Part shown: piece after piece, positions 4,721 to 60,085 of the stretch
Layout of the letters: each line of letters opens with the position of its first letter
How positions within the stretch are numbered: the first letter of the stretch is position 1
Assembly (NCBI GenBank): GCA_041687355.1
Contig: JAWLCD010000010.1
Span: forward strand, 2,371 to 66,370
Reading direction: 5' to 3'
Source: Clostridia bacterium
GTDB taxonomy: Bacteria; Bacillota; Clostridia; Acetivibrionales; UBA4821
DNA: 64,000 bases
Notes under the pieces: generated by a model
What the model saw: the letters and a program-made list of their open reading frames with translations, nothing else
Database searches by the model: none
What the model was told of the DNA's origin: nothing
Translations under genes and position numbers: made by a program

Positions 4721-4936
4721 TTACTTTATGCCCTTTACATCCAATCCCTCCCGATTGATAAGTAATTTTATCCTCTCGCTGTCATAATCGTCTTCGTCAT
4801 AATCTACAGTTATGGTATCGGCTTGCATATCCACTCTGACTGCAATAATTCCTTCCTGCTTGGTCAAGGTGTGTTTTATCCCGTTCATTGTATCTGCATC
4901 TTTCATATTATTGATAATAAACTTGTCTGCTTTCAC
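4721..4936 (-). CDS. heavy-metal-associated (HMA) fold-like small protein lacking the CxxC metal site
   Basis: 71 aa with a beta-alpha-beta-beta-alpha-beta-like pattern (GIKHTLTKQEGIIAVRVDMQADTITVDYD). No Cys in the protein. A terminator hairpin lies downstream. Confidence 0.5.
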   Translation of the reverse strand: MKADKFIINNMKDADTMNGIKHTLTKQEGIIAVRVDMQADTITVDYDEDDYDSERIKLLINREGLDVKGIK

Positions 4937-6165: not shown

Positions 6166-6300
6166 ATAAACAGGATTCTTGGATTCAGGTGGAGTTTTTT
6201 TCTCCATCTGAATCTTAGAAGCCGTTATCCAGGGGCGTAGCGCCGCTTAGCTCCCGCTTGAAGAAGAGGGAGTCTTAGCGGCGGTAGTCATCGGATAAAA
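6166..6300 (+). repeat. RepA copy A1 (core only, 135 nt)
   Basis: ATAAACAGGATTCTTGGATTCAGGTGGAG...CTCCATCTGAATCTTAGAAGCCGTTATCCAGG..GTAGCGCCGCTTAG..GGAGTCTTAGCGGCGGTAGTCATCGGATAAAA. Sits in the divergent gap upstream of ldcA. Confidence 0.9.
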
Positions 6301-7258: not shown

Positions 7259-7286
7259 ATATTTAGAGTATTGAACCTATACGTAT

Positions 7287-7325
7287 CGTGACGTGGCCAT
7301 TCACTTCGTTCAAGGAACTTCCCCC
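7287..7325 (+). repeat. RepE copy E2
   Basis: CGTGACGTGGCCATTCACTTCGTTCAAGGAACTTCCCCC, 5' of B2. Confidence 0.75.
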
Positions 7326-7334
7326 TTTGGTTAA

Positions 7335-7412
7335 GGGAAATGAATTAACTGGAGAATAAGTTTATGGAGAAATCTGATTTCGTAATCCTTATGAGCTGTT
7401 AATTTATTTCCC
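7335..7412 (+). repeat. RepB copy B2 (minimal form; arms joined at the GAAATC-T-GATTTC palindrome)
   Basis: GGGAAATGAATTAACTGGAGAATAAGTTTATGGAGAAATCTGATTTCGTAATCCTTATGAGCTGTTAATTTATTTCCC. Confidence 0.8.
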
Positions 7413-7424
7413 TGTATATAAGAT

Positions 7425-7464
7425 AAAGGGGCACGGCTACTCGCTCCGCTCAAGGAGCTTCCCC
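7425..7464 (+). repeat. RepE copy E3 (diverged)
   Basis: AAAGGGGCACGGCTACTCGCTCCGCTCAAGGAGCTTCCCC, 3' of B2. Confidence 0.65.
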
Positions 7465-7487
7465 ACTCTCCACAAGTCAAATAAGCA

Positions 7488-9063: not shown

Positions 9064-9307
9064 ATAAACAGGATTCTAAGATTCAGGTGGAGTTTTGGCT
9101 AATAATTTCTTGTTATCTTTGATAACTTAGAAATCATTGTCCACCTTGTGTGCTCCAACTGAATCTTAGAATCCGTTATCCAGGAACGTAGCACCGCCGT
9201 AGACTACTAGTCGCTTGATTTCGAAGAAATCTTAGCGATAGTGTCCATCTTTGATGCTCCCACTTGAATGAGAGGGGAGTCTTAGCGGTGGTAGTCATCG
9301 GATAAAA
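9064..9307 (+). repeat. RepA copy A2 (244 nt; 54-nt modules in both hairpin apices: 9101-9154 and 9203-9256)
   Basis: Same core as A1 plus two insertions. Lies between rsmD and pdp. Confidence 0.9.
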
Positions 9308-9401
9308 ATCCTACTGATTATTTTATAATACATCTGGGAAATGTCAATTGTTTTTAGTTAAACCTTAGCTTGATTATGGAGATTCCCCCTTGTGATTTGA
9401 G

Positions 9402-9473
9402 AGGAAATGAATTAACCGGCGAATAAGTTTACCTTGATTTCGCAGTCCTTATGAGCGGTTAATTTACTTTCCC
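9402..9473 (+). repeat. RepB copy B3 (minimal form)
   Basis: AGGAAATGAATTAACCGGCGAATAAGTTTACCTTGATTTCGCAGTCCTTATGAGCGGTTAATTTACTTTCCC. Confidence 0.8.
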
Positions 9474-9529
9474 TGACTGATAAGAAAAAGGAGCTAAGGG
9501 TGCAATCCTTAACTCCTTCAGCATTAATT

Positions 9530-13160: not shown

Positions 13161-13335
13161 ATAAACAGGATTCTTGGATTCAGGTGAAGTTTCTCCAACT
13201 GAATCTTAGAAGCCGTTATCCAGGAACTTATCGCCGCTTAGATTACTAGTCGCTTGATTTCAAAGAAATCTTAGCGATAGTGTCCATCTTTGATGCTCCC
13301 GAAGGGAGTCTTAGCGGCGGTAGTCATCGGACAAA
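13161..13335 (+). repeat. RepA copy A3 (175 nt; 54-nt module in hairpin 2 at 13242-13295)
   Basis: Lies between the FliK-like gene and rnhB. It contains the rnhB stop codon. Confidence 0.9.
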
Positions 13336-14031
13336 TCTTCTGGTGAAGCTCCTTCTATGTAATGGACATAAGCCCTTTCGTCTTATTGCTTCAATATGCT
13401 CTGCCGTACCATATCCCTTGTGCCTGGCAAATCCGTAGCCTTCATGTATTTTATCAATTTCTATAATCATTCTGTCTCTTGTAACCTTTGCAATTATGGA
13501 TGCAGCAGCAATGGACTGACTCAATGAGTCGCCTCTTACCATTGGTTTCTGCGGTACTTCTATATCTTCAAGACTTTCAGCATCAATAAACAGCACTTCG
13601 GGCTTAACCTCAAGCTGCTCCACAGCCTTCCTCATTGCAAGCCTGGTTGCGTTTAATATGTTTATTTCATCTATAATATTATTATCGACAATTCCAACTC
13701 CCCAGGCCACTGCTTCCCTTACAATAACATCAAACAATTCTTCCCTTTTCTTTTCACTTAATTTCTTCGAGTCATTGACCCCTTCTATCAATAAACCCTT
13801 TGGAAGTATGACGGCAGAAGCAACAACTGGGCCAGCAAGTGGCCCTCTACCTGCCTCGTCAATTCCGGCGATATATGTTATTCCATTGAGGTATTCTTCA
13901 TCCTCATACTGCATCAGTTTATGCAGCCTGTCCAGCTCTTTCTGTAGATACTTGCTGCCCTCTTTTGACCTTGTAGTAGTCTTTATTAGCTTATACTCCA
14001 CTTTTATCCCCCAATACTTCAGGCTCTTCAA
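13324..14031 (-). CDS. rnhB: ribonuclease HII
   Basis: Contains IAGIDEAGRGPLAGPVVASAV and DSKKLSEKKRE. The stop codon lies inside the 3' end of RepA copy A3. Confidence 0.94.
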   Translation of the reverse strand: MKSLKYWGIKVEYKLIKTTTRSKEGSKYLQKELDRLHKLMQYEDEEYLNGITYIAGIDEAGRGPLAGPVVASAVILPKGLLIEGVNDSKKLSEKKREELFDVIVREAVAWGVGIVDNNIIDEINILNATRLAMRKAVEQLEVKPEVLFIDAESLEDIEVPQKPMVRGDSLSQSIAAASIIAKVTRDRMIIEIDKIHEGYGFARHKGYGTAEHIEAIRRKGLCPLHRRSFTRRFVR

Positions 14032-14863: not shown

Positions 14864-14886
14864 TCATTTATACCCCTAATTCTTCC

Positions 14887-14911
14887 GTGACAGGGGACGG
14901 TTCTCTGTCAC
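14887..14911. repeat. RepH hairpin H1 (stem GTGACAG/CTGTCAC, loop GGGACGGTTCT)
   Basis: GTGACAGGGGACGGTTCTCTGTCAC. Exact reverse complement of H2. Confidence 0.85.
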
Positions 14912-14926
14912 ATTTCTTTAACGAAC

Positions 14927-14951
14927 GTGACAGAGAACCGTCCCCTGTCAC
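14927..14951. repeat. RepH hairpin H2
   Basis: GTGACAGAGAACCGTCCCCTGTCAC. Confidence 0.85.
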
Positions 14952-14968
14952 GTTTTAAGAAAAGAAAA

Positions 14969-14997
14969 GTGAGTCAAGGAACCGTCCCCTGACTCAC
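14969..14997 (-). terminator. rplS intrinsic terminator formed by RepH hairpin H3
   Basis: GTGAGTCAAGGAACCGTCCCCTGACTCAC. On the minus-strand RNA the hairpin is followed by UUUUCUUUUCUU. It starts 8 nt after the rplS stop. Confidence 0.8.
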
Positions 14998-15004
14998 TTT
15001 TATG

Positions 15005-17245: not shown

Positions 17246-17297
17246 GTTATATTCACCTCCTTTCGATGCGCAAAAATGGTTATAAGCTTCGTATAAC

Positions 17298-17484
17298 TTA
17301 TCCGATGATTACCGCCGCTAAGACTCCACTCTTCTTCATCTGGGAGACAAGCGGCGCTACGTCCCTGGATAACGGCTTCTAAGATTCAGATAAAGCACAC
17401 AAGGTGGACAATGATTTCTAAGTTATCAAAGATAACAAGAAATTATTAGCCAAAACTCCTCCTGAATCCAAGAATCCTGTTTAT
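17298..17484 (-). repeat. RepA copy A4 (187 nt, inverted orientation; 54-nt module in hairpin 1 at 17394-17447)
   Basis: Reverse complement of the RepA core. Lies between rpsP and ffh and contains the ffh stop codon. Confidence 0.9.
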
Positions 17485-49508: not shown

Positions 49509-49553
49509 AAGGTAGGGGGACGCGACCATTCGCTTCGCTCAAGGAACGTCCCC
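49509..49553 (+). repeat. RepE copy E4 (best stem GGGGACG/CGTCCCC)
   Basis: AAGGTAGGGGGACGCGACCATTCGCTTCGCTCAAGGAACGTCCCC, 5' of B4. Confidence 0.75.
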
Positions 49554-49610
49554 TTCTGATTATAGGGAAGATGAATTTAACTGGCGAATAAGTTTGCGGA
49601 GAAATCTTAG

Positions 49611-49741
49611 ATAAACAGGATTCTTGGGTTCAGGTGGAGTTTTGGCTCCAACTGAATCTTAGAAGCCGTTATCCAGGGACGTAGCGCCGCTTTTCTATAA
49701 TATTAAAGCTGGAGTCTTAGCGGCGGTAGTCATCGGATAAA
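49611..49741 (+). repeat. RepA copy A5 (core only, 131 nt), nested inside RepB copy B4
   Basis: The core sequence is flanked by the RepB left arm and RepC. Confidence 0.9.
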
Positions 49742-49753
49742 TTATGCGAAGTT

Positions 49754-49853
49754 ATGCTCAAATTTCAGGAAGAATTGACAGGACGTCAATTCTAGGAATT
49801 ATTGAGCCACGATGGCGAATTAATTCCGGTCTGAAATTTAGTATAACAAGCAT
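49754..49853 (+). repeat. RepC copy C2
   Basis: Differs from C1 at only a handful of positions. Confidence 0.75.
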
Positions 49854-49958
49854 CTAGTTTATCTTGATTTCGCAGTCCTTATGAGTTGCTAATTCATTTT
49901 CCCTAACTAATGAATTACCCCTTAATCACATTATATGACCTGCGTATCGGGAGGGTTC

Positions 49959-50137
49959 ATAAACAGGATTCTTGGATTCAGGTGGAGTTTTTGGCTCCAT
50001 CTGAATCTTAGAAGCCGTTATCCAGGGACGTAGCGCCGCTTAGACTACTAGTCGCTTGTTTTCAAAGAAATCTTAGCGATAGTGTCCATCTTTGATGCTC
50101 CCGAGGGGAGTCTTAGCGGCGGTAGTCATCGGATAAA
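49959..50137 (+). repeat. RepA copy A6 (179 nt; 54-nt module in hairpin 2 at 50044-50097)
   Basis: Core plus module. Lies just upstream (on the + strand) of the yebC terminator hairpin. Confidence 0.9.
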
Positions 50138-50145
50138 CTGCAAAA

Positions 50146-50187
50146 GGACAGGAACAGTAGCACAATATTGTGATACTGTTCCTGTCC
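50146..50187 (-). terminator. yebC terminator
   Basis: GGACAGGAACAGTA..TACTGTTCCTGTCC (14-bp stem plus an inner palindrome). On the minus strand it is followed by UUUUGCAGUUU. Confidence 0.8.
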
Positions 50188-50221
50188 CCCTGACATAAAA
50201 GGCTAAAATGTATGCTTACCC

Positions 50222-56782: not shown

Positions 56783-56827
56783 AAGGTAGAGGGACGCGTC
56801 ATTCGCTTCGCCCAAGAAACGTCCTCC
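56783..56827 (+). repeat. RepE copy E5
   Basis: AAGGTAGAGGGACGCGTCATTCGCTTCGCCCAAGAAACGTCCTCC, in the cbiM-cbiQ gap. Confidence 0.75.
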
Positions 56828-56837
56828 TTGATTACCA

Positions 56838-56874
56838 TGGTCACACCATTCACTTCACTCAAGGAACTTCCCCC
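56838..56874 (+). repeat. RepE copy E6
   Basis: TGGTCACACCATTCACTTCACTCAAGGAACTTCCCCC, in tandem with E5. Confidence 0.7.
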
Positions 56875-56896
56875 TTTGATTAAATGAGTCAATCTG

Positions 56897-59895: not shown

Positions 59896-60084
59896 ATAAA
59901 CAGGATTCTTAGGTTCAGGTGGAGTTTTAGGCTAATAATTTCTTGTTATCTTTGATAACTTAGAAATCATTGTCCACCTTGTGTGCTCCGACTGAATCTT
60001 AGAAGCCGTTATCCAGGGACGTAGCGCCGCTTCTCCCTCACTTGAAGAAGAGGGGAGTCTTAGCGGCGGTAGTCATCGGATAAA
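59896..60084 (+). repeat. RepA copy A7 (189 nt; 54-nt module in hairpin 1 at 59934-59987)
   Basis: Fills the whole gap between the two PP2C genes. Confidence 0.9.
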
Positions 60085-60085
60085 A

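Follow-up and report, generated by a model that had tools for sequence, protein, structure and literature searches.

The 64,000-nt stretch of DNA considered here (positions 2,371 to 66,370 of contig JAWLCD010000010.1 from a bacterium of the class Clostridia, assembly GCA_041687355.1), hereafter called the window, contains seven copies of an intergenic two-hairpin repeat, RepA, a mobile insertion that forms a Clostridial branch of the superfamily of bcr1 repeats. Nested in the hairpins of RepA are 54-nt cassettes of two kinds, H1 and H2, and these are discrete units with sharp edges whose gain or loss does not follow the ancestry of the host copy. The explanation that we favour, with a probability of about 50%, is that a self-folding and RepA-restricted cassette was placed by precise copy-in at the top of a host hairpin and was then passively co-amplified with its host. 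Repeats of the bcr1 type have been known for about 20 years and had been regarded as peculiar to the Bacillus cereus group. What is new here is the link between bcr1 and a large Clostridial family that hosts nested hairpin modules, whereas modular or nested small repeats as such were already known.

RepA has a length of about 135 nt, and its copies were defined by alignment over a conserved core together with a covariance model (R1) built on insert-free copies. A scan with this model yields exactly seven copies in the window:

6166-6300, plus strand: RepA A1, without cassette; two-hairpin core with ATAAA flanks; alignment, R1 at 152.9 bits, RNA fold of -68.7 kcal/mol (z -8.4)
9064-9307, plus strand: RepA A2, with both H1 and H2; alignment, fold and covariance model
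13161-13336, plus strand: RepA A3, with H2 only and a short hairpin-2 apex; alignment and covariance model
17297-17484, minus strand: RepA A4, with H1 only, in the ffh-rpsP spacer; alignment and covariance model
49611-49742, plus strand: RepA A5, without cassette, nested in a larger composite (RepB plus a TwoAYGGAY-like module); alignment and covariance model
49959-50138, plus strand: RepA A6, with H2 only; alignment and covariance model
59896-60085, plus strand: RepA A7, with H1 only; alignment and covariance model

The core conserved in the alignment of these seven copies reads ATAAACAGGATTCTTGGATTCAGGTGGAG-loop-CTCCAWCTGAATCTTAGAAGCCGTTATCCAGGGACGTAGCGCCGCT...GGAGTCTTAGCGGCGGTAGTCATCGGATAAA, and as RNA the insert-free copy A1 folds into two independent long hairpins. 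A consensus structure drawn from 41 insert-free copies of many genomes comprises 37 base pairs, of which 11 show compensatory change. All copies in the window are intergenic and lie among housekeeping genes (rpoD-dnaG, coaD-rsmD, pdp, rnhB, ffh-rpsP-rimM), in a stretch having a GC content of 42% and a strongly negative GC skew; the orientation bias of RepA with respect to GC skew is weak (70:43).

That RepA is a mobile insertion is evident from the ffh-rpsP spacer, which in the window holds copy A4 and in relatives is empty. In three of these, with Ffh proteins 80-82% identical, the spacer measures 31, 17 and 119 nt and contains no RepA, and in the one spacer read at base level (L094/L095) ATAAA is found at the site with no element, where the window has ATAAA-RepA-ATAAG at the corresponding place. 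In addition, ATAAA (TTTAT on the other strand) stands at both ends of all RepA copies, a single ATAAA being shared by copies arranged head to tail, and RepA copies are also found nested in each other or truncated, as in one locus (L039) that lacks the 3' arm of hairpin 2. A classical miniature inverted-repeat transposable element, with terminal inverted repeats like those of a parent IS, was considered and rejected, since neither the ends of RepA (CAGGATTC... and ...GTCATCGG) nor those of the cassettes form inverted repeats. A scan of the genome collection with a pattern for the RepA 5' end detected at least 93 loci in many Clostridia; among the matches listed, RepA is borne by Clostridium, Tindallia, Desulfoscipio, Peptococcaceae and several metagenome-assembled genomes (MAGs) of Clostridia. 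In the phage, plasmid and IMG/VR collections, neither this pattern nor a query with A2 (RepA with both cassettes) returned anything, and a query with the insert-free copy A1 yielded a single RepA-like match, located on a plasmid of C. tetani.

Of the elements known so far, bcr1 is the one most closely related to RepA, and this identity had not been recognised in the first-pass annotation of the window. In the B. cereus group, bcr1 is a non-coding repeat of about 155 bp with two stem-loops and a TTTAT direct repeat, which is transcribed and for which the mechanism of mobility is undescribed (PMC3184786, PMC6542083, PMC6199540, PMC3446304). Like RepA with its length of about 135 nt, it has two independent stem-loops, the same 5-nt direct repeat (TTTAT, i.e., ATAAA), intergenic and non-conserved locations, and no terminal inverted repeats (PMC3184786, PMC6542083). 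Direct similarity between the two is low, and a hidden Markov model of RepA run with nhmmer against bcr1 sequences (from the supplement of PMC2267715) gave no significant match. The covariance model of RepA, applied to a 40-kb Bacillus locus, picked as its top match exactly a full copy of bcr1, on the right strand and from end to end, with 17.5 bits (E about 0.016). A RepA variant from a metagenome (L101, 3376-3553, minus strand) is intermediate in sequence, having two exact 13-mers, ATAAAGTGAAACT and TAGTTGAACCAAT, in common with bcr1 and the remainder in common with RepA. In local alignments bcr1 reaches z = 11.6 against this variant and z = 5.8 against A1, and none of 1000 shuffles attains either score. 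The alignment of RepA and bcr1 is colinear and runs from the 5' ATAAA over a ..TTAG.. motif and GGxGTCTTA to the 3' GGATAAA; the positions listed for this homology are 6166-6300 and the six other RepA copies of the window, 19964-20116 in L109, and the stretch of L101 just given.

Taken together, the covariance-model match, the intermediate variant and the local alignments place RepA in the bcr1 superfamily. With this superfamily it shares the two independent stem-loops, a TTTAT/ATAAA bracket with an empty site in relatives, and a detectable sequence homology. However, bcr1 was originally defined as an element of the B. cereus group alone, and as RepA occurs in Clostridia outside this group it is a superfamily relative rather than bcr1 itself. 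Keyword and sequence-string searches of the literature found no description of these Clostridial elements, and nested 54-nt cassettes are not known to us from any account of bcr1.

As to the cassettes, the first-pass annotation had reported six 54-nt inserts in RepA and their absence from A1 and A5, and alignment, blastn and a covariance model of the cassette (R2) bear this out:

9101-9154, plus strand: H1 in A2, in the terminal loop of hairpin 1; 17-3-18 imperfect hairpin followed by a CAC-CTT-GTG mini-hairpin, GCT on both sides; R2 at 68.3 bits
9203-9256, plus strand: H2 in A2, in hairpin 2 beside the apical stem, at its 5' shoulder, forming a three-way junction; R2 at 89.9 bits
13242-13295, plus strand: H2 in A3; blastn and R2
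17394-17447, minus strand: H1 in A4; blastn and R2
50044-50097, plus strand: H2 in A6; blastn and R2
59934-59987, plus strand: H1 in A7; blastn and R2

The H1 copies of the window are identical at 54 of 54 positions (n = 3), the H2 copies are 96-100% identical (n = 3), GTCCAYCTT occurs six times where 1.1 occurrences are expected, and a composite cassette pattern has six matches in the window and none in 100 shuffles. With respect to position, the view that the inserts occupy the apices of both hairpins holds for H1, whose site is the terminal loop of hairpin 1, but not for H2, which by alignment and fold lies internally between GCCGCTTAG and the apical stem CTCCC...GGGAG and turns hairpin 2 into a three-way junction. 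Similarly, the presence or absence of an insert accounts for part of the size variation of RepA but not for all of it, the apical loop of hairpin 2 being 9-10 nt shorter in A3 and A6 and A5 having a different type of hairpin-2 apex.

Each cassette folds into an imperfect 17-3-18 hairpin with two conserved irregularities, of which one is a bulge and the other, at CTTG/CTTAG, a 1x2 internal loop, and its 16-nt tail forms a mini-hairpin of its own (CATC-TTT-GATG in H2, CAC-CTT-GTG in H1). Both cassettes stand directly 5' of (G)CTCC, a motif common to the two hairpin tops, and with another phasing both can equally well be read as units of 56 nt, RG(A)CTAMTAR...TG, between TT and CTCC. The direct GCT repeat that was thought to bracket H1 is present in four of five copies, the fifth (L048) having only GC at the 3' end; it may represent a duplication, a microhomology or a part of the unit. 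Between the cassettes and parts of RepA there is a suggestive similarity (H2 against the hairpin-2 apex and 3' arm, p about 0.008; H1 against the hairpin-1 3' arm, p about 0.03-0.1) on which we do not build.

That the cassette is a discrete unit, as the combinatorial pattern of its presence had suggested, is evident from a comparison over 103 conserved positions of the RepA core, in which cassette content does not depend on how closely the host copies are related. In particular, pairwise differences between the cores of the H1-bearing hosts amount to 8-12 of 103 nt, while H1 itself shows no difference in 54 nt among five copies (A2, A4, A7, L049 and L048) from two genomes. By our calculation, the probability of finding no difference in 54 nt at a host divergence of about 8-9% is below 0.01 per pair. 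Conversely, A7 with H1 and A5 with no cassette differ at two core positions, A6 with H2 and A1 with none at only one, and the host core nearest to A4, which bears H1, is that of A6, which bears H2. The pentamers directly 3' of H1 vary (CCAAC, TTATC, CCGAC, ACGCC), which speaks for a precise junction rather than for long conversion tracts, and the hosts of H1 include RepA copies of two hairpin-2 apex types and three hairpin-1-arm types. From the identity of H1, the divergence of its host cores and the differing hairpin-2 types and pentamers it follows that the cassette moved between RepA copies, or left them, after these copies had diverged.

A trivial source of such a pattern, which the first-pass annotation had itself considered, would be mis-joins induced by the repeats that swapped RepA variants between loci of a metagenome-assembled contig. 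The contig, of 67 kb, has no close sequenced relative, and its repeats share up to about 158 nt at 92-95% identity. However, it crosses the seven RepA copies with unique flanks, and filled and empty forms of this architecture, with cassettes identical in sequence, recur in independent assemblies, i.e., in the MAG 30dZY2.bin.108, in HGW-Firmicutes-12 and in JGI metagenomes (four further contigs), and we therefore regard an assembly artefact as very improbable. More generally, nested repeats in the spacers of core operons (ffh-rpsP, rsmD-pdp) can confound assembly, the prediction of small RNAs and the covariation-based discovery of RNAs.

Cassettes were sought with blastn-short, with a metagenome pattern leaving all stems free, and with the covariance model R2 over 806 kb. 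The model finds 15 copies, all of them already known and all inside RepA. Outside the window, blastn places H1 only in the MAG 30dZY2.bin.108 (L048 and L049), and H2 in the same MAG (L036) and in HGW-Firmicutes-12 (L039); the loci of the MAG and the window have only repeats in common. The metagenome pattern hit 13 loci, of which six are genuine, all of them H2 at the same spot of RepA hairpin 2; the other seven are chance matches in unrelated marine coding sequence and were discarded. Site fidelity is strict, with H1 in hairpin 1 in 5/5 cases and H2 in hairpin 2 in 10/10 of the model matches, or 11/11 with a near-identical extra locus (L107) from the metagenome scan. Thus, the question raised by the first-pass annotation whether the module also exists outside RepA has a negative answer for all the sequences searched. 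Occurrence in unrelated sequence contexts, by which the autonomous dispersal of a small dispersed repeat (SDR) would be recognised, was not seen, every genuine copy lying inside RepA. The cassette resides in RepA obligately and behaves like a sub-domain or nested unit, not like an independent repeat. Since H2 is found at the same hairpin-2 spot in at least five other assemblies, it is the older variant, and H1 is young, as its copies are identical and come from no more than two sources, this genome and a related MAG.

This confinement is also what would be expected if the cassettes were old optional sub-domains of RepA that never insert alone, spread by the copying of cassette-bearing RepA and are reassorted or lost through homologous recombination, gene conversion or slippage between short repeats. 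In addition to the absence of any cassette outside RepA and the restriction of H1 to hairpin 1 and of H2 to hairpin 2, the identical site of H2 in diverged RepA hosts of several assemblies fits such recombinational shuffling and hitch-hiking, for which the RepA arms offer identical stretches of 30-40 nt. Decay and deletion derivatives do exist, such as the above-mentioned copy in L039 without the 3' arm of hairpin 2, and the hairpin-1 loop GGAGTGTGCTCC of L012 could be a deletion remnant of H1. Against shuffling, the nucleotides 3' of H1 vary while the 54 nt are identical, so that conversion tracts would need to stop exactly at the cassette edge; H1 resides in hosts of two hairpin-2 types and three hairpin-1-arm types; and the self-nested modules of Clostridium spp. 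described below need at least one insertion at a new site. On balance, we consider shuffling without insertion, the main rival of copy-in, possible but rather unlikely. As to L012 itself (copy at 4721-4849, minus strand), its hairpin-1 top equals an H1-filled site after deletion between two GT dinucleotides, and may, speculatively, be the remnant of a cassette loss.

Aligned over their whole length, H1 and H2 reach a score of 44, which is reached by none of 2000 shuffles. In line with the common motif and tail from which their relatedness had first been proposed, they are homologous and form two paralogous variants. The compensatory substitutions by which their stems had been said to differ are likewise borne out. 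In an alignment of ten rows, one of H1 and nine of H2 (distinct sequences taken from the window, from two MAGs and from metagenomes), the 22 pairs of the stem are paired in 95% of cases, and six pairs are changed on both sides, which is reached by none of 500 shuffles; in slid controls the pairing collapses to about 35% throughout. The covariation is therefore real, but independent events are few, since five of the six compensatory pairs separate H1 from H2 and so reflect a single split. The column pair 14-37 has three pair types (AU, GC and UA), with an exchange between GC and AU inside H2 alone. In our view, templated (quasi-palindrome) mutation could also yield paired changes without selection. 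The fold is maintained, but the proposal that the structure of the module is kept and not its sequence goes too far, since the sequence is highly conserved, H1 being 100% identical in five copies from two genomes and the core of H2 nearly invariant across diverged hosts.

The covarying cassette stems would also fit another reading, in which RepA is transcribed and the cassettes are optional RNA domains under locus-wise selection, e.g., for protein binding via the CUUG/CUUAG internal loop or for RNA stabilisation. RepA does fold clearly better as plus-strand than as minus-strand RNA (-68.7 versus -53.5 kcal/mol in A1, and -50.5 versus -38.9 kcal/mol), because of its many G.U pairs, and CTTG...CTTAG recurs in hairpin 1 and in both cassettes, with CTTAG also in the 3' arm of hairpin 2. 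Moreover, relatives of bcr1 have been reported to be transcribed within untranslated regions (UTRs) (PMC3446304). However, six of the seven RepA copies in the window are on the strand opposite to nearly all genes, A4 being the exception, and the neighbours are unrelated housekeeping genes. Scans for promoters and terminators gave no consistent signal at the RepA copies, and Rfam, at the gathering threshold as well as at E <= 1, contains no family matching RepA or the cassette, the only matches being TwoAYGGAY on a neighbouring repeat and chance miRNA matches on long hairpins. Since the cassettes, in addition, fold without strand preference, an RNA expansion segment appears improbable as the explanation of their presence.

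Modules of other sequence are nested in RepA in other Clostridia. Clostridium sp. OS1-26, C. aciditolerans and a Clostridiaceae MAG have a 52-nt two-hairpin module in the hairpin-1 loop, in either orientation, and a 51-nt module in the hairpin-2 loop which is also found nested in its own loop, to a depth of two to three levels (loci of OS1-26 and relatives: L004, L005, L018, L027, L032, L057, L063 and L064). For OS1-26, RepA with these modules is present in the record NZ_CP133264.1. The 51-nt module reads AAGCAG..CCCAAATCTTTGATTTGG..CACAGAGTGC, and its outer stem covaries (AAGC/GCTT versus AAGT/ACTT). Genomes of the C. thermobutyricum type harbour a hairpin-2 module of about 70 nt with tandem GGGGACATTCC units, and in Tindallia a module lies between the two RepA hairpins and has CTTAG...GTCCACCT in common with H1. 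Almost all copies of these lineage-specific modules are also inside RepA. Homologues of bcr1 are widespread in Clostridia, and their hairpins repeatedly host small, lineage-specific, self-folding cassettes which come and go independently of the host. With many genomes, many module families and both filled and empty sites, a broad comparative data set is at hand in which a co-varying enzyme can be sought and the targeting of hairpin loops tested.

In the explanation favoured here, the cassette would be copied in precisely where an extruded RepA hairpin is single-stranded at its top, either through site-specific insertion or through template switching guided by the microhomology of a 2-3-nt CT/GCT repeat, and would then also be carried along whenever its host RepA is copied. 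It would persist with compensatory stems because only self-folding inserts leave the host hairpins intact, which RepA presumably requires as DNA or as RNA. A tolerance limited to self-folding inserts would also explain why unrelated small hairpin modules reside in the same RepA hairpins of other Clostridia.

Several observations weigh against copy-in. No enzyme or intermediate was identified, and no transposase lies near RepA in the window; a search for an autonomous partner met with nothing but ordinary genes among the open reading frames (ORFs) adjoining truncated RepA copies in three loci (L020, L022 and L082), and with housekeeping genes among those ORFs of the window that were checked. 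The phasing of the junctions is ambiguous by 1-3 nt, and a target-site duplication can therefore not be asserted. The strict fidelity of H1 to hairpin 1 and of H2 to hairpin 2 (15/15) would result from a homology-driven exchange among copies of RepA, and it is not expected if the target were merely CTCC, because both sites have CTCC. The cassette stems are almost without G.U pairs and both strands fold equally well, so that the fold does not point to the acting strand or molecule. Finally, the nearest relative has an Ffh identity of only 82%, and the loci compared include no orthologous pair of filled and empty cassette sites.

A bolder version of copy-in, which we put forward only tentatively and think rather doubtful, would make the cassette an actively mobile, structure-defined mini-element of about 56 nt that inserts precisely at TT^CTCC of extruded RepA hairpin tops by means of a hairpin-reading enzyme or an RNA intermediate, with bcr1-superfamily repeats across Clostridia and Bacilli serving as landing pads for lineage-specific modules. 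If true, this mini-element would be among the smallest in Firmicutes and part of a wider undescribed system, and comparative genomics across lineages could reveal the machinery that moves bcr1-type elements.

Amongst known systems, the SDR of cyanobacteria are a close parallel to the cassettes. They are 21-27 nt long, occur in several contexts, have a common fold kept through compensatory changes, and are found inside other small mobile elements and sometimes inside themselves. With these repeats the cassettes share their very small size, the fold kept through compensatory changes and the nesting in other small elements, self-nesting being seen in the analogous Clostridial modules; they differ in length (54-56 nt), in being limited to two sites of one host repeat, and in having no sequence relationship to SDR. 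To our knowledge, no enzyme is known for SDR. The SDR of Nostoc punctiforme were described by Elhai et al. in 2008 (Genome Res 18:1484; cited in PMC3116915).

ERIC with its internal inserts of about 70 nt and BOX with its A-B(n)-C organisation resemble RepA as intergenic structured repeats in which internal modules at fixed positions generate size classes (PMC3184786), but they have other sequences, taxa and architectures, and their modules are not hairpins with a mini-hairpin at the tops of host hairpins. REPIN/RAYT and the IS200/IS605-derived PATE share with RepA a hairpin-based build without terminal inverted repeats, a short motif that is conserved at the flank or target, and imperfect palindromes whose irregularities are conserved and could be read by an enzyme acting on single-stranded DNA. 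Elements of this type go with a Y1 (HUH) transposase or RAYT gene and with a strong strand bias relative to replication; here no gene for RAYT, TnpA or a Y1 (HUH) enzyme was found among the window ORFs scanned or beside truncated copies, the orientation bias against GC skew is only 70:43, and there is no GTAG/CGTC tag.

The window contains a second modular repeat, RepB, with a minimal form of about 140 nt:

1023-1343: RepB
7281-7421: RepB
about 9370-9481: RepB
49510-49911: RepB
7421-7473: RepB, partial
56783-56882: RepB, partial

Long forms of RepB contain a TwoAYGGAY-like two-hairpin module (Rfam; 1178-1305 at 45.5 bits and 49731-49878 at 56.8 bits) with AGTTTAY direct repeats around it. RepA copy A5 is nested in one RepB copy, and the composite as a whole is found again, with 87-90% identity, at three loci of the MAG 30dZY2.bin.108. 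The inner hairpin of H2 (9214-9235) reads CTTGATTTC-GAA-GAAATCTTAG, and the same two 9-10-mers flank the insert of RepB copy E3 in the opposite order (GAAATCTTAG ... CTTGATTTC), at 49602-49613 and 49864-49875, with 1296-1305 and 9434-9443 as further positions. The constant start of the 3' half of RepB is CTTGATTTCG.

Between genes, long near-perfect hairpins, matched in Rfam only as chance miRNA, are located at 14883-15001 and 50139-50194. Two adjacent hairpins among these, on opposite strands, share the apex CAGGGGACGGTTC and are followed by T-rich tracts in the manner of terminators, and another long near-perfect hairpin stands directly after A6. Just right of A2 there is a strong sigma-70-like promoter match (9320-9347, minus strand; TTGACA-16-TAAAAT, 11/12) pointing through A2 toward rsmD-coaD, and the antisense of A2 with both its cassettes would therefore fall in a 5' UTR. 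Finally, the stretch between A4 and rpsP (17246-17296) contains TTATACGAAGCTTATAAC, which is similar to ATTATGCGAAGTTATGCT (49733-49750) from the 5' end of the TwoAYGGAY-like module and may be a fragment of another nested element.

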